A DNA stretch of 64,000 bases from Squalus acanthias (taxonomy: Eukaryota), in the NCBI GenBank assembly GCA_030390025.1, contig JASTWF010000034.1, forward strand, positions 930,001 to 994,000, given 5' to 3'. Each line of letters opens with the position of its first letter. Position 1 is the stretch's first letter. The notes beneath the pieces were generated by a model. The model had not been told where the DNA came from and searched no databases. It worked only from the letters and a program-made list of their open reading frames with translations. Shown here piece by piece: positions 14,301 through 55,639 of this stretch. Position numbers and translations under genes: made by a program.

Positions 14301-17300
14301 CTCAACGTTGCAGTGAGTGTTGTGGGGTATATCATTGTTGCAGTGAGGTGTGTGGGGTATATCAGTGTGTTACAGTGAGTGGTGTGGGTTATAACCGTGT
14401 TACAGTGAGGGGTGTGGGGTATATCAGTTTTTCAGTGAGTGGTGGGGGGTATGTCAGTGTTACAGTGAGGGGTGTGTGGTATATCAGTGTTAGGGTGAGG
14501 GGTGTGGGGTATATCAGTGTTACAGTGAGTGGTGTGGGGTATATCAGTGTTACAGTGAGTGGTGTGTGGTATATCAGTGTTACAGTGAGGGGTGTGGGGT
14601 ATATCGGTGTTACAGTGAGGAGTGTGGGGTATCTCAGTGTTACAGAGAGGGGTGCGGGGTATATCTGTGTTACAGTGAGGGGTGTGGGTATATCAGTGTT
14701 ACAGTGAGGGGTGTGGGGTATATCAGTGTTAGATTGAGGGGTGTGGGGTATATCAGTGTTACAGTGAGGGGTGTGGGGTATATCAGTGTTACAGTGAGGG
14801 GTGTGGGTATATCAGTGTTACAGTGAGGGGTGTGGGGTATATCACTGTTACAGTGAGCGGTGTGTGGTATATCAGTGTTCCAGTGAGGTGTGGGGTATAT
14901 CAGTGTTACAGTGAGGGGTGTGGGGTATAGCCGTGTGTTACAGTGAGGGGTGTGGGGTATATCAGTGTGTTACAGTGAGGGGTGTGGAGTATATCAGTGT
15001 TACAGTGAGGGGTGTGGTGTATATCAGTGTTACAGTGAGGGGTGTGGGTTATATCCGTGTTACAGTGAGGGGTGTGGGGTATATCAGTGTTACAGTGAGG
15101 GGTGTGGCGTTTCTCAACGTTGCAGTGAGTGGTGTGGGGTATATCAGTGTTGCAGTGAGGTGTGTGGGGTATATCAGTGTGTTACAGTGAGTGGTGTGGG
15201 GTATATCAGTGTTACAGTATGGGGTGTGGGGTATGTCAGTGTTACAGTGAGGGGTGTGGGGTATATCAGTGTTACGGTTGGGGTGTGGGGTATATCAGTG
15301 TTACAGTGAGGGGTGTGGGGTATTTCAGTGTTACAGTGAGGGATGTGAGGTATCAGTGTGGCACTGAGAGGTGTGGGGTATATGAGATTGTTACAGTGAG
15401 GGGTGTGGGGTATATCAGTGTTACAGTGAGGGGTGTGGGGTATTTCAGTGTTACAGTGAGGGATGTGAGGTATCAGTGTTGCACTGAGAGGTGTGGGGTA
15501 TATGAGATTGTTACAGTGTGGGGGTTTGGTTATATAAGAGTGGTACTCTGAGCGATGTGGGGTATATCAGTGTTACAGTGAGGGGTGTGGGTAATATCAA
15601 TATGTGACAGTGAGGGTTTTTGGGTATTTCAGTGTTACAGTGAGGGGTTTTGGGGTATTTCAGTGTTACAGTGAGGGGTGTGGGTTATATCAGTTTTACA
15701 GTGAGGGGTGTGGGGTATATCAGTGTTACAGTGAGTGGTGTGTGGTATATCAGTGTTACAGTGAGGGGTGTGGGGTATGTCAGATCGTTACAGTGAGAAG
15801 TGGGGGTATATCAGTTTTACAGTGAGGGGTGTGGGGTATATCAGGGTGTTACAATGAGGGGTGTGGCGTATATCAGTGTTCCAGTGAGGGGTGTGTGGTA
15901 TATCAGTGTTACAGTGAGGGGTGTGTGGTATATCAGTGTTACAGTGAGTGGTGTGGGGTATATCAGTGTTACAGTGAGTGGTGTGGCGTATATCAGTGTT
16001 ACTGTGAGGGGTGTGGGGTATATCAGTGCGTTACAGTGAGGGGTGTGGGGTATATCAGTGTTACAGTGAGTGGTGTAGGGAATATCAGTGTTACAGTGAG
16101 TGGCGTGGCGTATATCAGTGTTACAGTGAGGGGTGTCGGGTATATCAGTGTTACAGTGAGGGGTGTGGGTTATATCAGTGTTACAGTGAGGGGTGTGGCG
16201 TATATCAATGTTACAGTGAGTGGTGTGGGGTCAATCAAAATGTTACAGTGAGGCGTTTGGGGCATATCAGATGGTTACAGTGATGGGTGTGCGGTACATC
16301 AGTGTGTGACAATAAATGTTTTTAGGTTATGTCAGCGAATGTTTTAGTGAGGCATGTGGGGTATATCAGTATGTGACAATAAGGGTTTTTTGTATTATAT
16401 CAGAGAGTGTTACGGTGTCGGGTACATCAATGTGTGACAATAAGGCTTTGGGGCTTATAGCAGTGTGTAACAGTGAGGGGTGTGGGGTGTATCAAAGTTT
16501 TACTGTGACGGGTGTGGTGTATATCAGAGTGTTACACTGAGGGGCGTGGGTTCTATCAGAGTGGATCAGTGAGGGGTGTGGTGTATATCAGTGTTAGAGT
16601 AGCAGTGTTACAGTGAGGGGTGAGCGGTATATCAGTGTGTTACAGTGAGGGGTGTGGGATATATTTGTTACTATGTGTTGTGTGAGGTATATCAGTGTTA
16701 CAGTGAGTTGTGTGGGTTATGTCAGTGTTATATCAGTGTTACAGTGAGGTGTGTGTGGTGTATCAGTGTTGCAGTGAGGGGTGTGGGTATATAAGTTTTA
16801 CAGTGAGGGGTGTGGGGTATATCAGAGTGTTACAGTGAGGGGTGTGGGATATATCAGTGTTACAGTGAGTGGTGTGGGTTATGTCAGTGTTATGGTGAGG
16901 GGTGTGGGGTATATAGTTTTACAGTGAGGGGTGTGGGGTGTATCAGTGTTACAATGAGAGGTGTGGGGTATATCAGTGTTATCGTGAGGGGTGTGGAGTA
17001 TATCAGTTTTACAGTGAGGGGAGTGGGGTGTATCAGTGTTACAGTAAGGGGTGTGGGGTATATAAGAGTGTTACAGTGAGGGGTGTGGGGTATATCAGTT
17101 TTACAGTGAGGGTGTGGGGTATATCAGAGTTACAGTGAGTGGTGTGGGGTATAGGATTGTGTTACAGTAAGGGGTGTGGGGTATGTAAGAGTGTTACAGA
17201 GAGGGGTGTGAGATAGTGTGTTACAGTGAGCCTATTGTGTATATCAGTGTTACAGTGAGGGTATTATGTATATCAGTATTACAATTAGGGGTGTGGGGTA

Positions 17301-20251
17301 TATCAGTTTTACAGTGAGGGGTGTGGGGTGTATCAGTTTTACAGTGAGGGGTGTGGGGTATATCAGTTTTACATTAAGGGGTGTGCGGTATATGAATGTT
17401 ACAGTGAGGAGTGTGGGTTATATCATTGTATGACTAAGAACTTGTGAGTTATATCAGCGTGTTACTTTGAGGGGTGAGGGGTATATCAGATCCTTACTGT
17501 GAGGGGCGTGGGCCATATCAGTGTGGTACTCTGAGCGGTATGAGGTATATCAGTGTTACAGTGAAAGGTGTGGGGTATATCAGTGTTACAGTGAGGGGTG
17601 TGGGGTATATCAGTGTTACAGTGAGGTGTGTGGGGAATATCAGTGTTACAGTGAGGGGTATATTAGTGTTACAGTGATGGGGTGTGGGGTATATCAGTGT
17701 TACAGTGGGGGATTTGGGTCTATCAGAATGTTACAGTGGGGTTCTGAGGTATATCAGTGTTACAGTGAGTGGTGTGGGGTAGATCAGTGTTACAGTGAGG
17801 GGTGTGGGGTATATCAGTGTTACAGTGAGGGGTGTGGGGTATATCAGTGTTACAGTGTGGGGTATGGGCTGTATCAGTGTTACAGTGAGGGGTGTGTGGT
17901 ATATCAGTGTTACAGTGAGGGGTGTGGGGTATTTCAGTGTTATAGTGAGGGGTGTAGGGTATATCAGTTTTACAGTGAGGGGTGTGGGGTATATCAGTGT
18001 TACAGTGAGGGGTGTGGGGTATTTCAGAGTTACAGTGAGGGGTGTGGGGTATCTCAGTGTTACAGTGAGGGGTGTGGGGTATGTCAGTGTTACAGTGAGG
18101 GGTGTGATGTATATCAGTGTTACAGTGAGTGGTGTGGGGTATATCAGTGTTACAGTGAGTGGTGTGTGGTATATCAGTGTTACAGTGAGGGGTGTGGGGT
18201 ATATCAGTGTTACAATGAGGAGTGTAGGGTATATCAGTGTTACAGTGAGTTCTGTGGGGTTTATCAGTGTTACGGTATGGGATGTGGGGTATATCAGTGT
18301 TACAGTGAGGGGTGTGGGGTATTTCAGTGTTACAGTGAGGGATGTGAGGTATCAGTGTTGCACTGAGAGGTGTGGGGTATATGAGATTGTTACAGTGTGG
18401 GGGTTGGGTTATATAAGAGTGGTACTCTGAGCGATGTGGGGTATATCAGTGTTACAGTGAGGGGTGAGGGTAATATCAATATGTGACAGTGAGGGTTTTG
18501 GGGTATTTCAGTGTTACAGTGAGGGGTGAGGGGTATATCAGTGTTACAGTGAGGGATGTGGGGTATGTGAGTGTTACAGTGAGGGGTGTGGGGTATATCA
18601 GTTTGTTACAGTGAGGGGTGTGGGTATATCAGTGTTACAGTGAGGGGTGTGGGGTATATCAGTGTTACAGTGAGGGGTGTGGGGTATTTCAATGTTACAG
18701 TGAGGGGTGTGGGGTATCTCAGTGTTACAGTGAGGGGTGTGGGGTATGTCAGTGTTACAGTGAGTGGTGTGTGGTATATCCGTGTTACAGTGAGTGGTGT
18801 GGGGTATATCAGTGTTACAGTGAGGGGTGTGGGGTATTTCAGTGTTACAGTGAGGGATGTGAGGTATCAGTGTTGCACTGAGAGGTGTGGGGTATATGAG
18901 ATTGTTACAGTGTGGGGGTTGGGTTATATAAGAGTGGTACTCTGAGCGATGTGGGGTATATCAGTGTTACAGTGAGGGGTGAGGGTAATATCAATATGTG
19001 ACAGTGAGGGTTTTGGGGTATTTCAGTGTTACAGTGAGGGGTGAGGGGTATATCAGTGTTACAGTGAGGGATGTGGGGTATGTGAGTGTTACAGTGAGGG
19101 GTGTGGGGTATATCAGTTTGTTACAGTGAGGGGTGTGGGTATATCAGTGTTACAGTGAGGGGTGTGGGGTATATCAGTGTTACAGTGAGGGGTGTGGGGT
19201 ATTTCAATGTTACAGTGAGGGGTGTGGGGTATCTCAGTGTTACAGTGAGGGGTGTGGGGTATGTCAGTGTTACAGTGAGTGGTGTGTGGTATATCCGTGT
19301 TACAGTGAGTGGTGTGGGGTATATCAGTGTTAGTGAGGGATGTGGGGTATTTCAGTTTTATAGTGAGGGGTGTGGGGTATATCAGTGTTACAGTGAGGGG
19401 TGTGGGTATATCTGTGTTACAGTGAACGGTGTGGGGTATATCAGTGTTACAGTGTGGGGTGTATTAGTGTGTTACAGTGAGGGGTGTGGGGTATATCTGT
19501 GTTACAGTGAGGGGTATGGGCTATATCTGTTACAGTGAGGGGTGTGGGGTATATCAGTTTTACGGTGAGGGATGTGGGGTATATCAGTGTTACAGTGAGG
19601 GGTGAGGGGTATATCAGTGTTACAGTGAGGGATGTGGGGTATGTGAGTGTTACAGTGAGGGGTGTGGGGTATATCACTTTGTTACAGTGAGGGGTGTGGG
19701 GTATATCAGTGTTACAGTGAGGGGTGAGGGGTATATCAGTGTTACAGTGAGGGGTGTGCTGTATATCAGTGTTACAGTGAGGGGTGTAGGGTATATCACT
19801 GTTACAGTGAGGGGTGTGGGGTATATCAGTGTTACGGTGAGGGGTGTGGGGTATATCAGTGTTAGTGAGGGGTGTGGGGTTTTTCACTGTTACAGTGAGG
19901 GGTGTGGGGTATATCAGTTTTACAGTGAGGGGTGTGGAGTATATCAGTGTTACAGTGAGGGGTGTGGGGTATATCAGTGTTGCAGTGAGGGGTGTGGGGT
20001 ATATCAGTTTTACAGTGAGGGGTGTGGGGTATATCAGTGTTACAGTGAGGGGTGTGGGGTATATCAGTGTTACAGTGAGGGGTGTGTGGTATATCAGTGT
20101 TACATTGAGGGGTGTGGGGTATATCAGTGTTACAGTGAGGGGTGTGGGGTATATCAGTGTTACAGTGAGGGGTGTGGGGTATATCAGTGTTACAGTGAGT
20201 GGAGTGGGGTATATCTGTCTTACATTGAGGGGTGTGGGGTATATCAGAGAG
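2396..20251. repeat. ~18-kb G/T-rich 30-bp satellite B (CAGTGTTACAGTGAGGGGTGTGGGGTATAT) with higher-order duplications
   Basis: 30-nt periodicity with 28-32-nt variants; diagnostic variant blocks recur at offsets 7741, 8041, 2032, ~870-900 and 515. Confidence 0.97.
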
Positions 20252-20955
20252 TGTTAGAATGTCGCTTTTAAATGCTCTGAATTGATTTGTCCGTGACTAT
20301 ACAAGCCACTCTGGGTACAGGTCTATTGTGTATAATTAAAACAGGTTTATTAAGCATTAAATATCCAGTACAAAGAAGTAATGCTAAACAAGAAGATTGT
20401 CGTAGTCTGTTTATTGTACCCCAGCGTTCCTTCCGAGTATCTCTCTTCTCTTGCTGTGTTCTGTTGACTGAAGCTTCTCATCCTCTGGTTTTGCGCTGCT
20501 TTCGGTGTTCAATAGCTGTTCATTTATTACTTTTTTTCCCTCCGTTTTGCCTACGTGGCAGTTAGTAAGCAAGCTATCCTGATCTGAGAACAACCTTCAC
20601 ACTAAATTCGCACAGATGTCTTTTCGCTTTTTAATCAGCTCATTGCTCAGCCGGTTCTGTATTTATGAGTGGTGACTGTCTCCAGCCCTCTATCTTCGTT
20701 TGCAATGCTGCTGAATTTCTTGTTTCCCACTGTCTCCTTGTGTACTTAACAAGCCATTTAACAGAATTACATCAATTTCTAACAGAGTTTAGTCAGGTTG
20801 GCATAATTCCCATCCTGCTTTGGTCTCAGCCATTTGCCATTTTATACAGGCTGTTTAGGTTTTTAACATACAACTTCACATATTATAGTTATATAAAAAT
20901 GGTTATAGAATCTTATTAATGTTTACTAAATCCTACAGGGACAGTCTATCCTACA
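20252..20955 (-). mobile_element. Putative 3' LTR (U3 start secure, distal end uncertain)
   Basis: Sense start TGTAGG at 20955, directly after a purine tract and ATC; AATAAA motifs on the minus strand (plus TTTATT near 20346, 20410, 20523); possible ...CTAACA end at 20252, which also matches the satellite motif. Confidence 0.6.
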
Positions 20956-20958
20956 GAT

Positions 20959-20967
20959 CCCTACCTT
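20959..20967 (-). other. Short polypurine tract (AAGGTAGGG)
   Basis: Lies between the env stop (21033) and the LTR start, 3 nt (ATC) before TGTAG. Confidence 0.55.
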
Positions 20968-21032
20968 GAGGGCGAGGCATTTTTCCGACCCCTCATAACG
21001 AAAATCTTACATATGGGTTTGTTCTCCCATGT

Positions 21033-21905
21033 TTATGTAACTCTGAAGATATTCCGGGTTGTGATCATATTTAAACGGGTTTTGTACATCAGGTGTTTCA
21101 GGTAGCAGGTGTAGAATAGTAAGCATGTCAGTACTCCAAGTTGCGTGATGACCAGTACATGGGAAATTACCCTAATCCAAGGAGGAATTTCCATGTTTGT
21201 CCCTATGTCCCACCAGTGTGTTTGATTTTTGATAACTGGAATTTTCTTGGCTACGGCTTCATTCCCTTGCACCAGTGTATAGTAATGGCGTTGGGAGGTG
21301 CTCACCTGATTTATTAATTCGGTTAAGGCTTCAGTTAGCTTGGGGATATCATATCCGAATTTAGTCACATAATCTTCTAGTTATATATTTAAATCATCCT
21401 CTACTTGTAATACCTGCTGGTCATGTGAGGCTACTGCAAGGAGAATCCTTCCTCCTATTACTGTAGTCTTAGTAGGTCTGATACAGTAGGTTCCTGGGGT
21501 TATTGAAGATTCAAGTGTTCCCTGACTATAGGAGCTCTCTAAAGTGGTAAAACAATATCTCCCTTCTCGTACGTAGGTTGTTCTAGTTCTTACATCTGAG
21601 GGGCCTGTCACTTCCATAGTACAGTTTAACCTTTCTTCATTCCAACCATACCCACATGTGTGCTTTGAATGATCGTACAAACTGTATGGGCAAACAACGG
21701 CATCCTCATTTGTACTACATCCTTGTAGGTTTGGTTCAATCCATGTTCGTTTTTCTAACTGTACTAACCATTGTGGTGCCCTGAGAAATCGGTTAATGGT
21801 ATTTCCTTTTACTACTCCTATATTCTCTTTTCTAAATAAGGGGTTGGGCCTGGTTCGATTCATTAGACTAGGAATTTGTAGTATTAGTCCAGATAATACT
21901 TGCAT
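21033..21905 (-). pseudogene. env: Envelope glycoprotein, C-terminal ~290 aa, resembling the paramyxovirus-type F1 subunit; one in-frame stop at 21381-21383
   Basis: ORFs 21381-21905 and 21033-21368 are in one frame (…DDLNI*LEDYVTKFG…); Cys-rich core, heptad-like segment, WWD, hydrophobic TM (VISHVLVITQLGVLTCLLFYTCYL), short tail; NxT sequons NRT, NCT, NQT. Confidence 0.8.
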
Positions 21906-23644
21906 ACTTTGGGTCAGTCTTTACGAAGGAAGACACAAAAAACCTCCCTGGGATATCGGGAAAAATAGGGACATTTGCAAAGGAGGAACTGACGCAAGTC
22001 AATATCTCTAAGGATATGGTGTTAAGGAAGCTAAAGGGATTGAAGGCGGACAAATCCCCAAGGCCTGATAACATGCATCCTAGGGTGCTGAAGGAGGTGG
22101 CCCTAGAGATAGCGGATGCACTAAGTATGATTTTTCAGAATTCATTAGACTCAGGAACAGTGCCCATGGATTGGAGGGTAGCTAACGTTACCCCACTATT
22201 CAAAAAGGGGGGTAGGGAAAAAGCAGGTAATTACAGACCTGTAAGCCTTACATCAGTTGTGGGCAAAATGCTGGAGTCCATCATTAAGGATGAAATAGCG
22301 GAGCACTTAGGAAATGGGGACAGGATAGGACAGAGTCAACATGGATTTACAAAGGGTAAATCGTGCTTGACTAATCTATTAGAATTTTTTGAGGGAGTAA
22401 CTGGTAAAATAGATGGGGGAGAGCCAGTAGATGTGGTGTACCTGGACTTCCAAAAGGCCTTCGATAAGGTCCCACATAAAAGATTAGCAGGGAAAATTGA
22501 AGCTCATGGGATAAAGGGGAAAGTATTGACGTGGATAGAGAACTGGCTGTCAGATAGAAAACAGAGAGTTGGAATAAACGGCTCATTTTCTGAATGGCAG
22601 GCAGTAACAAGTGGGGTACCACAGGGATCTGTCCTGGGTCCCCAGCTGTTCACAATTTACATTAATGACCTGGATCAGGGAGTCGGATGCAGCATTTCCA
22701 AATTTGCAGACGACACTAAACTAGGAGGGGGGGTGGGCTCAGAGGAGGAGACCAGGAAGCTCCAGAGCGATTTGGACAGACTGGGTGATTGGGCGGATAA
22801 ATGGCAGATGCACTATAATGTGGACAAGTGCGAAGTTATCCACCTTGGGTGCAGGAACGGGAGGGCAAATTATTATTTAAATGGCAATAAATTGGGAGAG
22901 GGGGAAGTACAGAGAGACCTGGGTGTTCTTGTACACCAGTCACTGAAGGCGAGCATGCAGGTGCAACAGGCGGTCAAGAAGGCAAACGGTATGCTGGCCT
23001 TCATAGCAAAAGGGTTGGAATACAGGAACAGGGATACCTTGCTGCAGCTGTACAGGGCACTGGTGAGACCACACCTCGAGTACTGTGTACAGTTTTGGTC
23101 GCCTCATCTGAGGAAAGATGTTCTTGCCATGGAGGGGGTGCAGCGGCGATTCACCAGGCTGATACCAGGAATGGCGGGATTGACCTATGAGGAGAGACTA
23201 TGTAGTTTAGGGATGTACACACTGGAGTTTAGAAGATTGAGAGGGGACCTCATAGAAGTGTATAAAATTCTGACAGGTCTAGACAGACTAGATGCAGAAG
23301 GAATGTTTCCCTTGGCGGGTGAGAACAGAACTAGAGGACATAATTTAAGGATAAGGGCTAAACCATTTAGGACAGAAATGAGGGGGAATTTCTTCACTCA
23401 GAGGGTGGTGAACCTGTGGAACTCATTGCCACAGAGGGCAGTGTACGCCAGCTCATTAAATATATTTAAGAGGGAATTAGATATATTTCTACAGGCAAAA
23501 GGGGTTAAGGGTTACGGAGAGAAGGCGGGGACGGGATACTGAATTGGAGGATCAGCCATGATCTCATTAAATGGCGGAGCAGGCTCGAAGGGCCGGATGG
23601 CCTACTCCTGCTCCTATCTTCTATGTATCTATGTATCTATGTAT
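21902..23644 (+). mobile_element. CR1-type LINE, 5'-truncated, young; inserted in env
   Basis: ORF2 frame open from YFGSVFTKED (21905) to stop 23542; 3' UTR ends in a (CTATGTAT)n tail. Confidence 0.95.
22016..23542 (+). CDS. CR1 ORF2 reverse transcriptase domain and C-terminus, uninterrupted
   Basis: NYRPVSLTS, QHGF, YLDFQKAFDKV, GVPQGSVLGP and KFADDTKL motifs; no stops over 508 aa. Confidence 0.93.
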   Translation: MVLRKLKGLKADKSPRPDNMHPRVLKEVALEIADALSMIFQNSLDSGTVPMDWRVANVTPLFKKGGREKAGNYRPVSLTSVVGKMLESIIKDEIAEHLGNGDRIGQSQHGFTKGKSCLTNLLEFFEGVTGKIDGGEPVDVVYLDFQKAFDKVPHKRLAGKIEAHGIKGKVLTWIENWLSDRKQRVGINGSFSEWQAVTSGVPQGSVLGPQLFTIYINDLDQGVGCSISKFADDTKLGGGVGSEEETRKLQSDLDRLGDWADKWQMHYNVDKCEVIHLGCRNGRANYYLNGNKLGEGEVQRDLGVLVHQSLKASMQVQQAVKKANGMLAFIAKGLEYRNRDTLLQLYRALVRPHLEYCVQFWSPHLRKDVLAMEGVQRRFTRLIPGMAGLTYEERLCSLGMYTLEFRRLRGDLIEVYKILTGLDRLDAEGMFPLAGENRTRGHNLRIRAKPFRTEMRGNFFTQRVVNLWNSLPQRAVYASSLNIFKRELDIFLQAKGVKGYGEKAGTGY

Positions 23645-23656
23645 AATGGTAAATTC

Positions 23657-26405
23657 TTGGCTATTACAGAGACGTGGCTGAAAGAGGAGCAGGTATGGCA
23701 GCTCAACATTCCTGGTTACAGGATTTTCATACGGGATAGAGAGTGAGGTAAAAAGGGAGGGGGTGTCCTGGTATTGTTTAAATAAACTATTACAGCTGTG
23801 AGGAGGGATGGTATGTTGGAGGGATCATCAAACGAGGCCATATGGGTCGAATTGATAAACAAAAAAGGGGCGATCACACTGCTGGGAGTGTATTATAAAC
23901 CCCCAAACAGTGAGAGGGAGATAGAAGAGCAAATATGTAGACACATTTCTGAGAAGTGCATAAACTATAGGGCAGTAATGTTAGTGGATTTCAACTACCC
24001 CAATATTAACTGGGATAAAATTAGTGTGAAGGAAAGAGAAGGTGCGTAATTCCTAAAATGCATCCAGGAGAACTTTTTTAGCCAGTATGTAGCAAGCCCA
24101 ACAAGGGAGCAGGCAGTTCTGGACTTAGTTTTAGGGAATGAAGCTGGGCAGGTAGAAGGCGTATCAGTGGGGGAGCATTTTGGTGCTGGTGACCATAATT
24201 CTGTTAGATTTAAGGTAGTTATGGAAAAGGACAAGGATAGACCAGGAAAAAAAAATCTAAATTGGGGAAAAGCAACTTTTGCTGAGCTGAGAGGGGATTT
24301 AGCCATAGTGGACTGGAAACAGCTACTTGAAGGTAAATCAGTGTCAGAGCAGAGGAAGGCATTCAAGGAGGAGATCCGGAGGGTTCAGACCAAATATATG
24401 CCCTTAAAGAAAAATGGTAGGACTAACAAATCTAGAGCCCCCAGGATGTCTCGGGACATACAGGGTCAGATAAAGAAAAAAAGGGAGGCGTATGACAGAT
24501 ACCGAGGGCTAAATACCGCAGAATCTTTAGAGGAGTACAGAAAGTACAGGGGTGCAATTAAAAAGGATATTAGGAAAAAAAAGAGAGAGCATGAAAAATT
24601 ATTTTCAAGTAAAATCAAGGAAAACCCAAAGATGTTTTACAAATATATTAAGAGTAAGAGGATAACTAAAGAAAGGGTAGGGCCTATTAGAAATCGTGAG
24701 GGCAATCTGTGTGTGGAGGCGGGATACGTTGGTAGGGTTCTTAATGAATACTTTGTGTGTGTTTTCACAAAGGAGAGGGGCGAAGCAGACATTGCTATCA
24801 GGGAGCGTGAAATATTAGATGGAATAAACATAGTGAGAGAGGAAGTATTAAGGGGTTTAGCAGCTTTATAAGTGGATAAATCCCCAGGCCCGGATGAAAT
24901 GTATCCCAGGCAGTTAAGCAAAGCAAAAGAGGAAATAGCAGAGGCCCTGGCCATCATTTTCCTCTCTGGCTTCAGGTGTGGTACTGGAGGACTGCTAACG
25001 TTGTACCCTTGTCTAAAAAGGTAGAAAAGGATAGACCGAGTAATTACAGGCCAGTCAGCCTAACCTCGGTGATGGGAAAATTAATGGAAATAATTCTGAA
25101 GGACAGGATAAATCTTCATTTAAAAAGACACGGATTAATCAAGGATAGTCAGCACGGATTTGTTAAGGGAAGGTCGTGTCTGACAAACTTGATTGAATTT
25201 TTTGAGGAGGTAACAAGGAGGGTAGATGAGGGTGGTGCATTTGATGTAGTGTATATGGACTTCAGCAAGGCTTTTGATAAGGTTCCACATGACAGACTGG
25301 TCACGATGTTAAAAGCCCTTGGGATCCAGGGCAAAGTGTCAAGTTGGATTCAAAATTGGCTCGGAGGCAAGTAGCAGAGGGTAATGGTTGCTGTGTGTTT
25401 TTGTGACTGGAAGGCTGTTTCCAGTGTGGTTCCGCAGGGCTCAGTACTAGGTCCCTTGCTTTTTGTGGCATATATCAATGATCTAGACTTGAATATAGGG
25501 GGTATGATTAAAAGTTTGCAGATGATACTAAAATCGGCGGTGTGGTTGATACTGAAGAAGGAAGCTGCAGACTGCAGGAAGATATCAATAAATTGGTCAG
25601 GTGGGTAGAACAGTGGTTAAAGGAATTTAATCCGGAGAAGTGTGAGATAATGTATTTGGGGAGAGCTAAAAAGGAAAGGGAAGACATATTAAATGGTAGG
25701 ATACGGAGTAGAGTAGAGGAACAAAGGGACCTTGGAGTGCATGTCCACAGATCCCTGAAGGTAGCAGGCCAGGTAGATAAGGTGGTTAAGAAGGCATACA
25801 GAATACTTGCCTTTATTAGCCGTGGCACAGAATACAAGAGCAGGGGGGTTATGCTTCAACTGTATAAAACACTGGTTAGGCCTCAGCTAGAGTACTGCGT
25901 GCAGTTCTGGTCATCACATTACAGGAAAGATGTGATTGTACTAGAGAGGGTACAGAGGAGATTTACAAGGATGTTGCCGGGAGTAGAGAATCTTAGCTAT
26001 GAGGAAAGACTGGATAGGCTGGGTCTGTTTTCCTTGGAACAGAGGAGGCTGAGGGGAGACCTTATTGAGGTGTATAAAATTATGAGTGGCCGAGATAAAG
26101 TGGAGAGAAAGGACCTATTTCCGTTAGCAGAGGGGTCAAAAACCAGGGGGCACAGATTTAAAGTAATTGGTGGAAGGTTTAGAGGGGATTTGAGGGGAAA
26201 TTTCCCCAGAGGGTTGTGGGGGTCTGGAGCTCACTGCCTGAAAGGGTGGTAGAGGCAGAAATCCTAACCACATTTAAAAAGTACTTGGATGTGCACTTGG
26301 GATGCTGTAACCTGCAGGGCTACGGACCAAGAGCTGGGACGTGGGATTAGGCTGGATAGCTCTTTGTTGGCCGGCGCGGACACGATGGGCTGTAACTTTC
26401 TATGA
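23657..26405 (+). mobile_element. Older CR1-type LINE (endonuclease to 3' UTR) with stops and frameshifts
   Basis: AITETWL, GVYYKPPN, DFNYP and GAGDHN endonuclease motifs; RT motifs split over ORFs 24976, 25384 and 25542. Confidence 0.93.
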
Positions 26406-27493
26406 TAATGCAGCAGGGGTCTTGTTGAGACTGGTTTAATTTCTGAACCAGATCAATAGTGTCCAACCCCAGAGCTGTTTGTGTAGATGTGATTAAGTTA
26501 TTAAGGGGGTTCCCCACATTAAAGGCCATGAAGGGGAGACTGGTGCGTAGGTCCGGGGTCAGGGCAGACAGTATAACATTTTTCATATCACTGTCCTCAA
26601 AATTAGATTGGTAATTGCGGAAAGCTGCCGAACATTAACTGAGGCTTTAAAGGGTGCAGGCTCGTCCACTGAGGTTTTCATGATATTGTTCTCAGCATAG
26701 GCTGGGGGGCCTCTTAGCCAGGTCGATGGTGGCATACGAGATGGGGGCCTTTTGGGGAGGGGGTAGCAAGGGAGGATATAGTTCTCCGCTGAACCCCTCG
26801 CATTCTGTATCATAAATCGGGGGGGGTGGTCTACCCCCGTGACTGCCCCTATTACAGCCCGTTGTTTACCCAGCTGGTTTTCCAACTCTTGTATAGTAAT
26901 ATGGCACAGTCTGTGGTCCGGCTCCCTTTGGGGCTGCTGAAGAGCCTCTCTTAGGGCTCCTGGTGAATCATTTAATTGTCTGGTAAGACGGTCATTGTCT
27001 TTTGTTAAGGAGGCTACCTGACACCGAGCCTCCTCAAGGTTCAGCATTGCAGCGCCAGGTGTGAACTGCATGAATGCGCTGTTGCTGGATTATTGCTGTC
27101 GAAGCCCCGACCTGGCCCTGAACAACTTCATTTTGGTGACTGAAGAGCTTCCATTTTACTCTTTAACTCTGCAGCCTCTTTCTCCCAGTTTGACTTCTCG
27201 CCCGTTAACTTTAGATTCTCTTCAATCAGCCGCAGCTTGTCTTTTTCTCATTGATTCTGATTGTCCTCTAGCTGGGTGACACGATACACTGCCGCAGAGG
27301 CCATCCGCTGCACTGCCCCATCTGGCTTCCATCTCTTCTCCTCAACTTGTTTCTCACTGAGCGCAACAACGTCCTCAAAGGAGACTCTCTTACCCTCTGT
27401 TAGACATTCTACTACTAACGTCTGGAACTGTGCAGCCTCCCACTTCTTCATTAACTTCGTTTTAAAGTCTACAAAGAAAATCTCACTCGACAT
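26406..27493 (-). pseudogene. gag: gag-like gene: coiled-coil N-terminal region, Pro-rich linker with PPAY, start of a capsid-like region; stops and frameshifts, truncated by CR1
   Basis: ATG at 27493 (MSSEIFF) ~120 nt after the PBS once the CR1 is removed; ORFs 27248-27574, 26583-27071 and 26347-26586 are collinear; PPAY at 26697-26708. Confidence 0.65.
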
Positions 27494-27581
27494 CTTGCTG
27501 TACGTTAAAGTGACACTGTCTGTCAGATAACCTAACTTTCCACAAGGACTCTCGTTGATCAGACGAAAATCCAAGCGCCTG

Positions 27582-28574
27582 CCAGTTATTCACAATATAT
27601 ATCAATGATCTAGACGAGGGAACTAGATGTAATATCTCCAAGTTTGCAGACGACACAAAGCTGGGTGGGCGTGTGTGTTGTGAGGAGGATGCAGAGAAAC
27701 TCCAGTATGATTTGGACAAGTTGGGTGATTGGGCAGATGCATGGCAGATGCAGTTTAATGTGAATAAATGTGAGGTTATCCACTTTGGTGGCAAAAACAG
27801 GAAGACAGATTATTATCTGAACGGCAATAGATTGGGAGAAGGGGAAGTGCAACGAGACCTGGGAGTCCTTGTGCACCAGTCGCTGAAGGTAAGCATGCAG
27901 GTGCAGCAGGCGGTGAAGAAGGCAAATGGTATGTTGGCCTTCATAGCGAGAGGATTCGAGTACAGGAGCAAGGATGTCTTGCTGCAGTTGTACAGGGCCT
28001 TGGTGAGACCACACCTTGCGTATTGTGTGCAGTTTTGGTCACCTTATCTGAGGAAGGATGTTCTTGCCATGGAGGGAGTGCAGCGAAGATTCACCAGGCT
28101 GATACCTGGGATGGCAGGAATGATGTATGAAGAGAGATTGGGACGATTGGGCTTATACTCGCTAGAGTTTAGAAGAGTGAGAGGGGCTCTCATTGAAACT
28201 TATAAAATTCTAACAGGACTAGACAGACTAGATGCAGGAAGGATGTTCCCGATGGCGGGGGAATCCAGAACCAGGGGTCACAGTCTAAGGATAAGGGGTA
28301 AAACATTTAGGACTGAGATGAGGAGGAATTTCTTCACCCAGAGAGTGGTGAACCTGTGGAATTCTCTTCCACAGAAGGCAGTAGAGGCCAATTCATTAAA
28401 TATATTCAAGAAGGAGTTAGATATATTTCTTAAGGCTAAAGGGATCAAGGTATATGGGGAGAAAGCAGGGACAGGGTACTGAATTTGGATGATCAGCCAT
28501 GATCTCATCGAATGGCGGAGCAGGCTCGAAGGGCCGAATGGCCTACTCCTGCTCCTATCTTCTATGTTTCTATG
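27582..28574 (+). mobile_element. CR1-type LINE 3' fragment inserted in the ERV leader
   Basis: QLFTIYINDL and KFADDTKL to AGTGY stop (28482); CTATGTTTCTATG tail; TGC at both junctions. Confidence 0.95.
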
Positions 28575-28606
28575 CACAATAGACCTGGTTTCAGTTAATA
28601 GTCACA

Positions 28607-28624
28607 GCACCACGTTAGGCGCCA
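28607..28624 (-). promoter_or_regulatory. Primer-binding site, tRNA-Lys(CUU)/Lys1,2 type
   Basis: Minus strand TGGCGCCTAACGTGGTGC versus canonical Lys1,2 PBS TGGCGCCCAACGTGGGGC (16/18); preceded by CTACA-GAT. Confidence 0.85.
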
Positions 28625-31600
28625 ATCTGTAGCTTATTTTAATATAGATATAAAATAAACTACTTTCTATTTGATATATAAGGTGCCGGACAAGAATGGG
28701 TTAATTTCAGCCGTTCAGTGACTAATTGATGCCAGTCTCCATGGGAACTAATTGTCTCTGCTTGTTATTAATTCCAGTCAGTTGAACACAGCAGGTCATA
28801 GAGTATTCTTTCCAATTTTTATTATAATGGAATATATTTAAAATATATCTCAGATCTGCATTTTGCTAATCTCAATAAATCAATTCCTATCATTTAATCA
28901 TTAAACACTCTGACTGTCCAGAAACCAAGAGATGTTCATCTCACTCAGCGAGGTTGCACTGTGGGAATCGGGTTCACTCTGCAGGATTGAAAATGTAGAC
29001 TGCTGGGTGGAAAGGTGCTAATTAATATCAGGACTTTCAAAATACGGCAACAGATTCTCACCATTGTAAGCAGCACCTTTCAGGGATTCACTATTCCTCT
29101 TTATAAGTTCAGTCTATACAGCATCAGTGTGAAAATCCCCAGCCACCCTCATAAGGCAGAAACCAGGCAACACGGACGGTTCCTCATTGTGGGGGATGGA
29201 GATTTAACTGAAAGTTTTGTCTACACTGGTTAGAATCTGGATTATATCTTTGAATGTTCTGGTACTGAGCTGACACTGTCCAACACAGGATCCCTCTGAA
29301 ATTTCCACCAGTAACAGTGAACCTGAATCCCAGCATTAAACAAGACAGGTTACATTCCCGGCCGTGGTTACATCTCTTACTTCATTCAATCAGTGAATTT
29401 AATGATTGAATTGTTGGGGGTAAATTGTTAATTTGAGCTGAGAGTTATTTTGGGGAATCTTTTAGAATATATTCTGTGATCTCAGAAATGATAATGGGAG
29501 CCTTGTGTAAATCTGTTGTGCTCAGCTTACTGTAACTAATAAGAAGCAGAGATATGTAGTTTCCAGTTCAGTGATGTATCAGGAAGGGTAGTGAATATAT
29601 AAGTGAGATCAGTGACTGAACATTTGAGATCAGTAATGTCTCGGAATGGGCAGTGGCAGTACAATGTATGTCAGAGATAGTCCTAGAGATTTATTGACAG
29701 TACAATATCTGTCAGTAAACCAGCTCGGATTGTATGGACAGTACAAGTGAGGTCAGTAATGTGCCTGGATGTGGAACGATGGTGCAAGTGTGGTTCGTGG
29801 ACTACAGAATGGATAGTGACAGTATAAGTGAGGTCAGTGACATATCGGAATGGGTAGTAACAGTAGATGTGAAGTCAGTTACATTTCTAAATAACTATCA
29901 ATTCTTCCTGCATGTTCTGTGAGAAGCGATGATTTCTGTTGCTTGTGTTGAAACCGGCAGTGAGACTGTCAGCTAACAGGGTCATATTAGTGCCAGTCCG
30001 TTGGTCACAGCAGCATCAGACATTATTCCCGCTCATGTTTATTACAGAACTGAAAATATTTAAATAGGGATATCGAGGAGTGGCAATCAGGACAATCCAC
30101 TTCTCCCAAAGATCAGTTTCTGAACACTCCAGGTTTGCTAAATCAAACTGATCATTAGGTCGTGCTGTACCAGAGAATTTTATTTGTGAACTGACCTGCT
30201 CCATGTTTCAGGGACGGTATCTGAGTGTAAACTGACCGGGTGAATTGGATAGACAGTCGCTGAAATGACAGGATTAGAATTTATCACCGAAATTGTCTGA
30301 AATCTGTAACTAAATCTCTGCTCTCAATGTAATGCTATCGGACTGCAGGGCTCATATTTTCTATTATTCCCAATTCTAGTGAAATAATATTCAGTTCTTT
30401 TGGGAGTTCACCTTACAGACGGGCAATACCTGTCTAATATTAATATAGATATAAAATCATATACTTTATATTTGTTATATGAAGTGCCGGACAAGAACAG
30501 GTTAATTTCAGCCGTTCAGTGACTAATTGATGCCAGTCTCCATGGGAACTAATTGTCTCTGCTTGTTATTAATTCCAGTCAGTTGAACACAGCAGGTCAT
30601 AGAGTATTCTTTCCAATGTTTATTATAATGGAATATATTTAAAATATATCACAGATCTGCATTTTGCTAATCTCAATAAATCAATTCCTATCATTTAATC
30701 ATTAAACACCCTGACTGTACAAAACCAAGAGATGTTCATCTCACTCAGCGAGGTTGCACTGTGGGAATCTGGTTCACTCTGCAGGATTGAAAATGTAGAC
30801 TGCTGGGTGGAAAGGTGCTAATTAATATCAGGACTTTCAAAATACGGCAACAGATTCTCACCATTGTAAGCAGCACATTTAAGGGATTCACTATTCCTCT
30901 TTATAAGTTCAGTCTATACAGCATCAGTGTGAAAATTCCCAGCCCCCGTCATAAGGCAGAACACAGGCAACATCGACGGTCCCTCATTGTGGGGGATGGA
31001 GATTTCATTGAAAGTTTTGTCTACACTGGTTAGAATCTGGGTTATATCTTTGAATGTTCTGGTACTGAGCTGACACTGTCCAACACAGGATTCCTTTGAA
31101 ATTTCCACCTGTAACAGTGAACCTGAATCCCAGCGTTAAACAAGACAGGTTACATTCCCGGCCGTGGTTACATCTCTGACTTCATTCAATCAGTGAATTT
31201 AATGATTGAATTGTTGGGAGTGAATTGCAGAATTGACCTTAGTGTTAGTTTGGGGAATCTTTTAAAATATATTCTGTGATCTCAGAAATGATAATGGGAG
31301 ATTGTGTAAATCTGTTGTCAGCTTACTGTAACTAATAAGAAGCAGAGACATGTAGGTTCCAGGGTGAGTCACATTCAATCCAGTCACTGAACAGCAGCAG
31401 TTTCCCTTTTCACTCTAAGACTCTTTGCACAACAATATACTTTAAACCAGGTATTGGACAGATGAATATTAAAAACCCCACAAACCACAGAATAGGATCA
31501 TTTTAATAACTATTGGGAATAACAGACGGTGCGAATCGCTCGGTCTGACAGGAATGATGAGAAGTGGGAGCCGATTAATTTACAGTTTTAAATCATTTCC

Positions 31601-31960
31601 ATGAGCCGATGTAATCTTGTCATTTCATACAATTTCTATCCACTTCTCAGGGGTGGGCTTAACAGTCACACACAGAAACTGAAACATTTCACTGGTCAGA
31701 CTCCAAAACAAAAATCAGAAATTGGGAAATCAGCAGGTTATATTTCTATTATAATTCACTTCATGGTTCCTCACCTGTGATCCTTCAGATAATCTAAAAT
31801 AGGTTCATTGTTCTGTATTTAATTAAACTAATGGATAAATGTACTGTAATTTTGAACAATTCGTTTATATTGCCCTGGATCCGTGAGATTTCAGGAGTAT
31901 TGTAAGAGAGAGCCGTATGTCTGAGGCAGCGCCATCGTACAACGGTGCACCTAAATGTAT

Positions 31961-32706
31961 CTGGATGGGTAGAGACAGTATGAGTGAGGTCAGTGATAAT
32001 CCTGGATGGGTAGTGACAGTATGAGTGAGGTCAGTGATAATCCTGGATGGGTAGTGACAGTATGAGTGAGGTCAGTGATAAACCTGGATGGGTAGTGACA
32101 GTATGAGTGAGGTCAATGATAAACCTGGATGGCTAGTGACAGTATGAGTGAGGTCAGTGATAATCCTGGATGGGTAGTGACAGTATGAGTGAGGTCAGTG
32201 ATAAACCTGGATGGGTAGTGACAGTATGAGTGAGGTCAGTGATAAACCTGGATGGGTAGTGACAGTATGAGTGAGGTCAGTGATAAACCTGGATGGGTAG
32301 TGACAGTATGAGTGAGGTCAGTGATAAACCTGGATGGGTAGTGACAGTATGAGTGAGGTCAGTGATAAACCTGGATGGGTAGTGACAGTATGAGTGAGGT
32401 CAGTGATAAACCTGAATGGGTATTGACAGTATGAGTGAGGTCAGTGATAAACCTGGATGGGTAGTGACAGTATGAGTGAGGTCAGTGATAATCCTGGATG
32501 GGTAGTGAGAGTATGAGTGAGGTCAGTGATAAACTTGGATGGGTAGTGAGAGTATGAGTGAGGTCAGTGATAATCCTGGATGGGTAGTGACAGTATGAGT
32601 GAGGTCAGTGATAAACCTGGATGGGTAGTGACAGTATGAGTGAGGTCAGTGATAATCCTGGATGGGTAGTGACAGTATGAGTGATGTCAGGGTAAACCTG
32701 GATGGG
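31961..32706. repeat. 41-bp VNTR (GACAGTATGAGTGAGGTCAGTGATAAWCCTGGATGGGTAGT), ~18 units
   Basis: 41-nt period; lies inside copy 2 of the 3.1-kb unit. Confidence 0.95.
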
Positions 32707-35115
32707 CATTGATAACACAGGTCAGTTCAGTGATGTATCAGGAAGGGAAGCGAATATTTAAGTGAGATCAGTGACTGAACAATTGAGGTCAGTAATGTCT
32801 CGGAATGGATAGGGGCAGTACAAACTATATCAGAGATATTCCTTACTTGCAATTACAGTAAAATATCTGTCAGTAAACCAGCTCGGTTTGTATTGACAGT
32901 ACAAGTGAGCTCAATAATGTACCTGGATGTGGAATGTTGGTTCAAGTGAGGTCCGTGGTATACAGAATGGACAGTGACAGTATAAGTGAGGTCAGTGACA
33001 TATCGGAATGGGTAGTAACAGTAGATGTGAAGTCAGTTACATTTCTAAATAACTATCAAATCTTCCTGCGTGTTCTGTGAGAAGCGATGATTTCTGTTGC
33101 TTGTGTTGAAACCGGCAGTGAGACTGTCAGCTAACAGGGTCATATTAGTGCCAGTCCGTTGGTCACAGCAGCATCAGACATTATTCCCGCTCATGTTTAT
33201 TACAGACTGAAAATATTTAAATTGGGATATCGAGAGTGGCAATCAGGACAATCCACTTCTCCCAAAGATCAGTTTCTGAACACTCAAGTTTGATTTAGCA
33301 AATCTGATCATTAGGTCGTGCTGTACCAGAGAATTTTATTTGTGAACTGACCTGCTCCATGTTTCAAGGACGGTATCTGAGTGTAAACTGACCGGGTGAA
33401 TTGGATAGACAGTCGCGGTAAAGACAGGATTAGAATTTATCACCGAAATTATCTGAAATCTGTAACTAAATCTCTGCTCTCAATGTAATCCTATCGGACT
33501 GTGGGCCTCATATTTTCTATTATTCCCAATTCTAGTGAAATAATATTCAGTTCTTTTGGGAGTTCACTTTACAGACTGGAAATATCTGTCTCATATTAAT
33601 ATAGATATAAAATCATATACTTTATATTTGTTATATGAAGTGCCGGACAAGAACAGGTTAATTTCAGCCGTTCAGTGACTAATTGATGCCAGTCTCCATG
33701 GGAACTAATTGTCTCTGCTTGTTATTAATTCCAGTCAGTTGAACACAGCAGGTCATAGAGTATTCTTTCCAATGTTTATTATAATGGAACATATTTAAAA
33801 TATATCACAGATCTGCATTTTGCTCATCTCAATAAATCAATTCCTATCATTTAATCATTAAACACTCTGACTGTCCAAAAACCAAGAGATGTTCATCTCA
33901 CTCAGCGAGGTTGCACTGTGGGAATCGGGTTCACTCTGCAGGATTGAAAATGTAGACTGCTGGGTGGAAAGGTGCTAATTAATATCAGGACTTTCAAAAT
34001 ACGGCAACAGATTCTCACCATTGTAAGCAGCACCTTTCAGGGATTCACTATTCCTCTTTATAAGTTCAGTCTATACAGCATCAGTGTGAAAATTCCCAGC
34101 CCCCTAATAAGGCAGAACCCAGACAACATCGACGGTCCCTCATTGTGGGGGATGGAGATTTATCTGAAAGTTTTGTCTACACTGGTTAGAATCTGGATTA
34201 TATCTTTGAATGTTCTGGTACTGAGCTGACACTGTCCAACACAGGATCCCTCTGAAATTTCCACCAGTAACAGTGAACCTGAATCCCAGCATTAAACAAG
34301 ACAGGTTACATTCCCGGCCGTGGTTACATCTCTGACTTCATTCAATCAGTGAATTTAATGATTGAATTGTTGGGAGTGAATTGTAGAATTGAGCTGAGTG
34401 TTAGTTTGGGGCATCTTTTAAAATATATTCTGTGATCTCAGAAATGATAATGGGAGATTGTGTAAATCTGTTGTCAGCTTACTGTAACTAATAAGAAGCA
34501 GAGACATGTAGGTTCCAGGGTGAGGCACATTCAATCCAGTCACTGAACAGCAGCAGATTCCCTTTTCACTCTAAGACTCTTTACACAACAATATACTTTA
34601 AACCAGGTATTGGACAGATGAATATTAAAAACCCCACAAACCACAGAATAGGATCATTTTAATAACTATTGGGAATAACAGACGGTGCGAATCGCTCGGT
34701 CTGACAGGAATGATGAGAAGTGGGAGCCGATTAATTTACAGTTTTAAATCATTTCCATGTCCCGATGTAATCTTGTCATTTCATACAATTTCTATCCACT
34801 TCTCAGGGGTGGGCTTAACAGTCACACACAGAAACTGAAACATTTCACTGGTCAGACTCCAAAAAAAAATCAGAAATTGGGAAATCAGCAGGTTATATTT
34901 CTATTATAATTCACTCCATGGTTCCTCACCTGTGATCCTTCAGATAATCTAAAATAGGTTCATTGTTCTGTATTTAATTAAACTAATGGATAAATCTACT
35001 GTAATTTTGAACAATTCGTTTATATTGCCCTGGATCCGTGAGATTTCAGGAGTATTGTAAGAGAGAGCCGTATGTCTGAGGCAACGCCATCGTGCAACGG
35101 TGCACCTAAATGTAT

Positions 35116-35738
35116 CTGGATGGGTAGAGACAGTATGAGTGAGGTCAGTGATAATCCTGGATGGGTAGTGACAGTATGAGTGAGGTCAGTGATAATCCTG
35201 GATGGGTAGTGACAGTATGAGTGAGGTCAGTGATAATCCTGGATGGGTAGTGACAGTATGAGTGAGGTCAGGGATAAACCTGGATGGGTAGTGACAGTAT
35301 GAGTGAGGTCAGTGATAAACCTGGATGGGTAGTGACAGTATGAGTGAGGTCGTTGATAAACCTGGATGGGTAGTGACAGTATGAGTGAGGTCAGTGATAA
35401 TCCTGGATGGGTAGTGACAGTATGAGTGAGGTCAGTGATAAACCTGGATGGGCAGTGACAGTATGAGTGAGGTCAGTGATAAACCTGGATGGGTAGTGAC
35501 AGTATGAGTGAGGTCAGTGATAATCCTGGATGGGTAGTGACAGTATGAGTGAGGTCAGTGATAAACCTGGATGGGTAGTGAGAGTATGAGTGAGGTCAGT
35601 GATAATCCTGGATGGGTAGTGACAGTATGAGTGAGGTCAGTGATAAACCTGGATGGGTAGTGACAGCATGAGTGAGGTCAGTGATAATTCTGTATGGGTA
35701 GTGACAGTATGAGTGATGTCAGGGTAAACCTGGATGGG
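35116..35738. repeat. Same 41-bp VNTR, ~15 units
   Basis: Inside copy 3; three fewer units than copy 2. Confidence 0.95.
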
Positions 35739-37696
35739 CATTGATAACACAGGTCAGTTCAGTGATGTATCAGGAAGGGAAGCGAATATTTAAGTGAGAT
35801 CAGTGACTGAACAATTGAGGTCAGTAGTGTCTCGGAATGGATAGTGGCAGTACAAACTATATCAGAGATATTCCTTACATGTAATTACAGTAGAATATCT
35901 GTCAGTAAACCAGCTCGGTTTGTATTGACAGTACAAGTGAGGTCAATAATGTACCTGGATGTGGAATGTTGGTTCAAGTGAGGTTCGTGGTGTACAGAAT
36001 AGATAGTGACAGTATAAGTGAGGTCAGTGACATATCGGAATGGGTAGTAACAGTAGATGTGAAGTCAGTTACATTTCTAAATAATTATCAAATCTTCCTG
36101 CATGTTCTGTGTGAAGCGATGATTTCTGTTGCTTGTGTTGAAACCGGCAGTGAGACTGTCAGCTAACAGGGTCATATTAGTGCCAGTCCGTTGGTCACAG
36201 CAGCATCAGACATTACTCCCACTCATGTTTATTACAGAATTGAAAATAGTTAAATAGGGATATCGAGGAGGGGCAATCAGGACAATCCACTTCTCCCAAA
36301 GATCAGTTTCTGAACACCCCAGGTTTGCTAAATCAAACTGATCATTAGGTTGTGCTCTACCAGTGAATTTTATTTGTGAACTGACCTGCTCCATGTTTCA
36401 GGGACGGTATCTGAGTGTAAACTGACCGGGTGAAATGACAGGGTTAGAATTTATCACCGAAATTATCTGAAATCTGTAACTAAATCTCTGCTCTCAATGT
36501 AATCCTATCGGACTGCAGGGCTCATATTTTCTATTATTCCCAATTCTAGTGAAATAATATTCAGTTCTTTTGGGAGTTCACCTTACAGACGGGCAATACC
36601 TGTCTCATATTAATATAGATATAAAATCATATACTTTATATTTGTTATATGAAGTGCCGGAGAAGAACAGGTTAATTTCAGCCGTTCAGTGACTAATTGA
36701 TGCCAGTCTCCATGGGAACTAATTGTCTCTGCTTGTTATTTATGCCAGTCAGTTGAACACAGCAGGTCATAGAGTATTCTTTCCAATGTTTATTATAATG
36801 GAACATATTTAAAATATATCACAGATCTGCATTTTGCTTATCTCAATAAATCAATTCCTATCATTTAATCATTAAACACTCTGACTGTCCAAAATCCAAG
36901 AGATGTTCATCTCACTCAGCGAGGTTGCACTGTGGGAATCGGGTTCACTCTGCAGGATTGAAAATGTAGACTGCTGAGTGGAAAGGTGCTAATTAATATC
37001 AGGACTTTCAAAATACGGCAACAGATTCTCACCATTGTAAGCAGCACCTTTCAGGGATTCACTATTCCTCTTTATAAGTTCAGTCGATACAGCATCAGTG
37101 TTAAAAATCCCAGCCCCCCTAATAAGGCAGAACACAGGCAACATCGACGGTCCCTCATTGTGGGGGATGGAGATTTACCTGAAAGTTTTGTTCACACTGG
37201 TTAGAATCTGGATTATATCTTTGATGTTCTGGTACTGAGCTGACACTGTCCAACACAGGATCCCTCTGAAATTTCCACCAGTAACAGTGAACCTGAATCC
37301 CAGCATTAAACAAGACAGGTTACATTCCCGGCCGTGGTTACATCTCTGACTTCATTCAATCAGTGAATTTAATGATTGAATTGTTGGGAGTGAATTGTAG
37401 AATTGAGCTTAGTGTTAGTTTGGGGCGTCTTTTAAAATATATTCTGTGATCTCAGAAATGATAATGGGAGATTGTGTAAATCTGTTGTCAGCTTACTGTA
37501 ACTAATAAGAAGCAGAGACATGTAGGTTCCAGGGTGAGTCACATTCAATCCAATCACTGAACAGCAGCAGATTCCCTTTTCACTCTAAGACACTTTGCAC
37601 AACAATATACTTTAAACCAGGTATTGGACAGATGTATATTAAAAACCCCACAAACCACAGAATAGGATCATTTTAATAACTACCCGGTCTGGGTAT

Positions 37697-55612: not shown

Positions 55613-55639
55613 GTATGGAGCGGGAGGGAGTAACAGTGG

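Follow-up and report, generated by a model that had tools for sequence, protein, structure and literature searches.

Our analysis of a 64,000-nt stretch of the Squalus acanthias genome (contig JASTWF010000034.1, positions 930001-994000; hereafter the window) shows that its minus strand carries a dead, internally deleted provirus. Relatives of this element that retain pol have a reverse transcriptase (RT) that falls inside Retroviridae, outside both the lokiretroviruses (Loki) and class I, and their envelope protein (Env) is predicted to be of the paramyxovirus-F type, with a likely Ig-like domain at its N terminus. We put the probability of this reading at roughly 85%. A preliminary description, made from the letters of the window, had proposed a lokiretrovirus hidden under three CR1 insertions, and had said that full-length relatives whose RT groups with other endogenous retroviruses (ERVs) would speak against this; it is among such retroviruses that the RT falls.

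Searching the 3.7-Gb genome with the env, gag, long terminal repeat (LTR) and other pieces of the window located the pol-retaining copies that had been proposed as a check, with the order protease (PR), RT, tether, RNase H (RH) and integrase (IN). In a 72-row RT tree, comprising 65 database rows (64 picked from 152 proteins whose RT span was at least 200, plus P0015) and seven rows from this genome, the seven genome RTs are sister to a Xenopus tropicalis Pol (support 100/98) and group with it among frog and coelacanth Pols (94/92). The branch that encloses these with snakehead retrovirus (SnRV) and 17 class I-like rows has a support of 100/99, and the Loki-motif rows are excluded from it at 100/98. 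Most gypsy rows were dropped from two later trees. Under a mixture model with 40 rows, the inside-Retroviridae branch is supported at 99/95 and the family group at 97/94, and in a 47-row tree the former reaches 100/99. The approximately unbiased (AU) test rejects a tree in which the family is forced to group with the Loki-motif rows (p=7e-5). The family RT is thus inside Retroviridae and outside class I in all three trees, which hold no class II rows.

The RT sequence itself carries the motifs LPQG..N and LLQYVDD, as in the SnRV and retrovirus rows, whereas Loki rows have PFG. Its nearest RTs are those of X. tropicalis (58% identity), frogs (53-55%) and Latimeria (52%), and Loki-motif proteins reach 35-38%. 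When a Loki-motif Pol was used as the query, a stricter first look at the genome gave only matches of 32-41%, and the seven loci that were fetched all lie inside Retroviridae. Among solved structures, foamy Pol ranks first as a match to the RT (E 4e-40), followed by Ty3 (1e-30) and an MLV-type enzyme (3e-28); by eye, the RT is unlike the foamy and FLERV rows and nearer the SnRV row. Judged by its RT sequence, the family appears to be a true retrovirus and not a lokiretrovirus. A scan of IMG/VR with the family RT gave no match.

In other copies, the full Env measures about 830 amino acids (aa). It opens with a signal-peptide-like stretch and an arm of ~290 aa; after these come an RxxR site with GLIND... 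behind it, the heptads, the Cys-rich region, and then a membrane-proximal helix and a transmembrane segment. Searched against 1.84 billion representatives, an Env profile gave 52 matches, none of which has the Loki Env motifs. The same profile found only weak coiled-coil and transmembrane matches among PDB sequences, and a word-based homologue search with the long Env frame found none in 5595 candidates. Of the 20 relatives checked, 18 are named: Chiloscyllium, Mustelus, Pristiophorus, Heterodontus, Rhincodon and Rhinoraja, then the frogs Pelodytes, Mantella, Bombina and X. tropicalis. The sharks and skate among them, together with a stretch of Heterodontus fbxo15 that matches two exons in this genome (87% and 91%), point to an elasmobranch, in line with the cartilaginous-fish host that had been guessed from the surrounding repeats. 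In the Cys-rich region of two Mantella rows, the spacing resembles CX6CC. A Chiloscyllium relative is annotated as 'Ig-like domain-containing', and another relative has a weak V-set match (E 0.045). Three gene models from Pristiophorus and Heterodontus (P0180, P0190 and P0173) fuse this env to cadherin-related 5, fbxo15 and a Niban-like gene; these fusions are probably mis-annotations and possibly exonisation.

We modeled the Env of another copy with AlphaFold from a 51-sequence alignment; a shallow-alignment model was unusable, with a predicted local distance difference test score (pLDDT) of 32. Within the F core, the pLDDT is 70-95 for most blocks of 10 residues. The top 50 Foldseek matches in the PDB are all paramyxovirus or pneumovirus F proteins (best E 2.6e-10), and the BFVD search also returned lispivirus G, baculovirus F, walleye epsilonretrovirus Env and feline foamy Env. 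VIA-align matches the model to Newcastle disease virus (NDV) F with Z 10.1 (root-mean-square deviation (rmsd) 19.1, 343 residues aligned) and to foamy Env 8rm0 with Z 9.1 (rmsd 6.1, 277 aligned). The predicted F-type fold spans Env residues ~300-760, and the atlas assigns the C-terminal half to F-type (Baculo_F) clusters at 0.91. Over residues 108-283, many Ig domains align at Z 8-9 (rmsd 2-3, ~85 aligned), and the atlas gives Ig clusters at 0.84-0.86 for the N-terminal arm, which is a lead only. By predicted fold, the assignment of this Env as an F-type (class Ib) fusogen is well supported, in keeping with the resemblance to Mononegavirales fusion proteins that had been proposed for it. The arm probably holds an Ig-like domain, and we infer from the model that this head may serve attachment.

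Several observations weigh against this reading. The rows called Loki and SnRV come from the database and were labelled by eye-matching to the alignment of Wang & Han, not by name: nine proteins carry the Loki motif (P0009, P0010 and P0012-P0018), and P0064 is nearly identical to the paper's SnRV row. P0064 joins at an unresolved node instead of being the family's sister, and the trees, besides lacking class II, have no foamy or ERV-L rows. PF00523 is matched by none of the 51 aligned Env members. The Env model is moderate (mean pLDDT 58, predicted TM-score (pTM) 0.45, and pLDDT 58-71 in the Ig part), the Foldseek TM-scores are ~0.27, and the Ig call rests on Z-scores near the 'common arrangement' range and an atlas lead of 0.86. 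The frog env and the frog pol may belong to separate elements, and the comparison with CmiERV-I given below is a by-eye reading of a supplement. Finally, the family IN is 43-50% identical to Loki-motif INs compared to 34% for SnRV IN, and in an IN tree, built from the 54 rows out of 57 with sufficient span, the Loki INs are nested next to those of frog and coelacanth members of this RT group (P0005, P0047, P0051 and P0052) with a support of 97/87.

This IN similarity would be explained if the element were a mosaic, in which a retroviral gag-PR-RT is joined to a 3' half, IN and env, held in common with Loki through ancient recombination, and by eye the Cys-rich region of Env does align with Loki Env. 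However, the Loki INs are not the sister group of the IN of this family (the node is open, and the tree has no CGIN1 row), and Wang & Han themselves warn that IN trees are unreliable (PMC7947760). No sequence-level link between this Env and Loki Env was found in the searches above, and F-type folds also occur in foamy and walleye epsilonretrovirus Env, so we regard the mosaic as unlikely. A possible source of the Loki IN lies among those frog and coelacanth INs, although the rooting of the IN tree is doubtful. A true lokiretrovirus, the first in cartilaginous fish, would likewise account for the IN identity, the F-type Env fold and the dual RH, but it has to be set against the placement of the RT in three trees, the AU result, the missing Loki RT motif, the lack of Loki Env motifs among the Env relatives and the low identity of the matches to the Loki-motif Pol query; we consider it highly improbable.

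Gag and the protease bear on a further alternative, that the family belongs to the foamy-related clade Tu as a divergent ERV of cartilaginous fish. The best solved-structure RT match, the Lys-type primer-binding site (PBS) and an Env fold like that of foamy Env, which is itself F-related (PMC11468914), would all fit such an origin. However, Gag has a CCHC knuckle (zf-CCHC, E 4e-7), whereas foamy Gag is described as having no Cys-His box (PMC8278194), and the protease gives a weak RVP match and no match to the foamy A9 family. Furthermore, gag and pro share a frame across a single TGA, and the RT looks nearer to SnRV, which together make a foamy relationship very unlikely. In the PDB, the best match to Gag is an MLV capsid peptide at only E 0.69. 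The Baculo_F clusters, and reports that F-type env genes are widespread in gypsy elements (10.1101/2023.10.26.564294), would also suit an env-bearing Ty3/Gypsy (errantivirus-like) element with a baculovirus-F-type env. The probability of this is negligible, as the RT stands apart from 16 gypsy rows at 100/99 in the 72-row tree and Pol has a tether and a second RH, and we consider it ruled out. The reading that we prefer remains a retrovirus by its RT with an Env of predicted F type.

The family is numerous in the genome. The env piece has at least 150 matches (from 6871 candidates), the gag piece at least 148 (among the best 150 of 363 candidates) and the 3' LTR at least 41 (40 of 1252 candidates were scored), with the window LTR 85-89% identical to dispersed copies. 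By eye, 29 of the 50 top env matches have a gag match no more than 15 kb upstream in the same orientation, a count that includes the window and four segmental duplicates and takes its gag side from the same best 150 candidates. Gag and env thus belong to one element, as had been supposed. Pfam matches in other copies follow the order Gag_p30 (weak), zf-CCHC, RVP (weak), RVT_1, tether (PF17917/PF17919), RH (PF00075), H2C2 and rve, with Env coming after them, within a family layout of LTR(TG...CA)-PBS-gag(CCHC)-in-frame TGA-PR-RT-tether-RH-IN-env-polypurine tract (PPT)-LTR. The gag and pro genes occupy one frame, split by the single TGA, in three of four readable copies. Two Lys-type PBS variants occur among the copies, and an exact 4-bp target-site duplication (TSD) flanks five of the nine elements with both ends readable. 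In four two-LTR copies, the LTRs differ by a Kimura two-parameter (K2P) distance of 0.022-0.036, which corresponds to 5-8 million years at a rate of 2.2e-9 or to 50-80 million years at 2.2e-10, the shark substitution rate used in Han 2015 (PMC4422223).

Following general retrovirology, tRNA-Lys would prime reverse transcription, Gag-Pol would be produced by read-through of the TGA stop, and integration would proceed with a 4-bp stagger. In Env, furin is predicted to cut at RxxR and expose the fusion peptide, and the heptads would then power F-type fusion and refolding. The Ig-like head would be an attachment module that is absent from paramyxovirus F.

Two other kinds of element were seen alongside these copies. 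A nested Ty3/Gypsy-type element lies inside pol in two copies (L017/L018 and L023/L024). A second ERV lineage, made up of the seven loci fetched with the Loki-motif Pol query (L069-L075), carries an Env of the same family, with 31-37% identity over long matches in four of the seven loci; its RT forms a branch of its own inside Retroviridae, not with Loki.

The copy in the window is a dead, internally deleted and non-functional relic of this ERV family, each viral piece of which was confirmed against other copies. All coordinates below are positions within the window, and all viral pieces are on the minus strand. The U5 end of the 5' LTR (28628-28635) is reduced to ~8 nt, with CTACA at their end, that match the LTR end of two-LTR copies; the remainder of this LTR is gone, and a host tandem unit of ~3 kb begins directly upstream of ~28636. 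The PBS (28607-28624) follows 3 nt (GAT) after the LTR end and is of the Lys type, presumably for tRNA-Lys. A leader of ~120 nt in total, recognized by blastn to other copies, is split by CR1 #1 into two parts (28575-28606 and 27494-27581). The gag gene starts with an ATG at 27493 and keeps ~1.1 kb of its 5' part (26408-27493), covering the coiled-coil-like region and the start of capsid; tblastn aligns it in three frames, at 56-80% identity, to the gag frame of another copy, and it is damaged by a stop, frameshifts and internal deletions. The env remnant (21033-21890) is a single frame with one in-frame stop and represents the last ~285 codons: the Cys-rich region, membrane-proximal helix, transmembrane segment and tail are present, and the deletion has removed the signal peptide, Ig-like domain, furin site and fusion peptide. 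A short PPT (20959-20967) ends 3 nt before the 3' LTR (20260-20955), which is complete at 696 nt, with the family termini TGTAG...CTACA and an ATC-TGTAG junction at 20955. The gag and env pieces of the window have no Pfam match of their own, and a sequence search of the PDB with the env piece gave no matches. No tRNA genes were found in the window, and 20200-39000 has no Rfam match.

In several other copies, the spacing from the start of gag to env is, by eye, ~7.1-7.4 kb, compared to the ~1.1 kb of gag kept here. Therefore, ~6 kb between gag and env (the rest of gag, all of pol and most of env) has been deleted and is not hidden beneath the CR1s. The order U5-PBS-leader-gag-env-PPT-U3 set out in the preliminary description is real, but the provirus under the three CR1s lacks these ~6 kb and all but ~8 nt of its 5' LTR, and what is left does not add up to a coherent provirus. 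Its coiled-coil gag also held in part: a coiled-coil-like stretch (34% E/K/Q) does lie in the Gag frame, but its crude heptad score is no better than that of shuffled sequences (36 of 200 score as high). It has no SMC match in Pfam, and no separate smc open reading frame (ORF) occurs in the family copies. An SMC gene is thus ruled out, and the stretch is part of Gag.

The three CR1 insertions, all on the plus strand, record the later history of the locus. CR1 #1 (27582-28574) is 5'-truncated (~1.0 kb), has an RVT_1 match, is 95% identical to a CR1 elsewhere and is absent from the leaders of other copies. CR1 #2 (23646-26400; ~2.75 kb) sits at the gag/env deletion junction, and the deleted provirus with this junction is found at six loci in the genome, three on C2671, the contig of the window, two on C3235 and one on C1241. 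A 7-nt word on both flanks of CR1 #2 in the segmental duplicates suggests that it entered a provirus that was already deleted. CR1 #3 (21903-23645) has a 556-aa frame with an RVT_1 match (E 9e-32); in total, PF00078 (RVT_1) matches two of the three CR1 pieces. The CR1 #3 site is empty in both segmental duplicates compared, on contig C2671, so this insertion is the youngest event at the locus. A 701-nt CR1 3' end at 37694-38394 is inverted and 99% identical to CR1 #3, and the CR1 #3 subfamily is therefore young. The compared duplicates are 97-99% identical, and in five the 3' LTR adjoins a 30-bp satellite. Four further loci (L062-L065; 91-93%) also have this LTR-satellite junction and form an older layer of segmental duplication. 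A plausible order of events would be integration, the ~6-kb deletion, then CR1 #1, CR1 #2 and loss of the 5' LTR, followed by segmental duplication to at least six loci and finally insertion of CR1 #3 in the window copy.

The flanks are host repeats, not viral sequence. The 30-bp satellite next to the 3' LTR extends over 806-20247, and on the other side the host tandem unit (~1.8-3.2 kb) is present in four copies between 28636 and 37700, two of which contain a 41-bp minisatellite, with no Rfam match. Most of the window consists of arrays of 30-, 38-, 65-, 67- and 85-bp repeats (806-20247, 39111-52106 and 54682-63802).

Taken together, these observations place a predicted F-type Env on a pol inside Retroviridae that does not belong to Loki and, judging from Gag and protease, is not foamy either, so that an F-type Env would not be a hallmark of lokiretroviruses. 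As to how retroviral env arose, Wang & Han kept four scenarios in play (PMC7947760); the present findings lend weight to an early presence of the F-type fusogen among retroviruses. We tentatively raise, as a doubtful possibility, that the shark-skate-frog lineage keeps an ancestral class Ib F-type Env, deeply shared with foamy, walleye epsilonretrovirus and Loki, to which a captured host Ig head was added, that Env of the gamma type (class Ia) took its place afterwards, even in close relatives such as CmiERV-I, and that Loki may have drawn its IN from this group. The predicted Ig-like head on an F scaffold offers a testable model of a one-protein machine that would both attach and fuse. Screens with gamma- or beta-type Env queries, such as those described in 10.1101/2021.11.23.469661, would miss this family. 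SnRV-related ERVs in cartilaginous fish are already known (PMC4422223, PMC6001957), as are F-related Envs in Loki and foamy. Our literature searches turned up no report of a class III-like pol combined with an F-type Env that bears an Ig domain; subscription papers, PMC9972966, Repbase and bioRxiv supplements lay outside these searches and may already contain the family.

Compared to lokiretroviruses, the family has the same gag-pol-env arrangement between LTRs (in other copies, the window copy being deleted), the same PR-RT-tether-RH-IN order with dual RH, and a similar IN. This Pol organization is common to other retroviruses and is not diagnostic of Loki. By predicted fold and by layout, both have an F-like Env with an RxxR site, fusion peptide, coiled coil and transmembrane segment. 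As defined by Wang & Han (PMC7947760), Loki have an RT sister to all Retroviridae, an IN closest to CGIN1 and an Env like Mononegavirales F with RXKR. In contrast, the RT here lies inside Retroviridae, the separate smc ORF (an optional Loki feature) is lacking, and Env is ~830 aa with a probable Ig-like N-terminal arm, compared to ~520 aa in the Loki Env rows of that paper. The paper reports lokiretroviruses in none of six chondrichthyan genomes, in agreement with the host range given in the preliminary description, which had no cartilaginous fish in it.

The likeness to foamy Env and to paramyxovirus and pneumovirus F is one of predicted fold. F scaffolds are said to take receptor-binding modules at the N terminus or between subunits (PMC11468914), and the added module here is predicted to be Ig-like and N-terminal, not the foamy receptor-binding domain (RBD); Gag and protease are not foamy-like either. 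Predicted structures of the Envs of the walleye epsilonretroviruses WEHV-1 and WDSV also match the F-type model (E 3.4e-10 and 7.7e-8), although these viruses have a class I pol and a much longer Env, and no sequence-level match to them was found. These matches suggest that exogenous epsilonretrovirus Env is also class Ib. XtERV-S (PMC8278194) and crocodilian ERV4 (PMC4299795) are likewise class III-like ERVs with env in non-mammals. Identity with either is ruled out: XtERV-S has a dUTPase, a Ser PBS, a gamma-type env and a 5-bp TSD, and ERV4 has no zinc finger and a 5-bp TSD, whereas this family has CCHC and a 4-bp TSD.

The closest parallel in pol and host comes from SnRV-related class III ERVs, named clade Huo by Xu et al. 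2018 and known in cartilaginous fish (PMC6001957). One of these, the SnRV-related lineage I (CmiERV-I) of the elephant shark, was reported by Han 2015 (PMC4422223), and its supplement sequence, read by eye, resembles the family in motifs of the RT, the thumb and the IN end, in a Gag with CCHC and a region of charged repeats, and in a gag stop shortly ahead of pro; its host, too, is a cartilaginous fish. CmiERV-I differs in its PBS, which was read as Leu, and in a gamma-type env with an immunosuppressive domain (ISD) and CX6CC, whereas in the present family the PBSs are of the Lys type and the F-type env lacks an ISD. A class III SnRV-related pol with a gamma-type Env was also reported by Chen et al. 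(10.1101/2021.11.23.469661). The difference between CmiERV-I and the family described here suggests envelope swapping within one pol group, which, if the closeness of the two pols seen by eye is true, would be a swap between two unrelated classes of fusogen.

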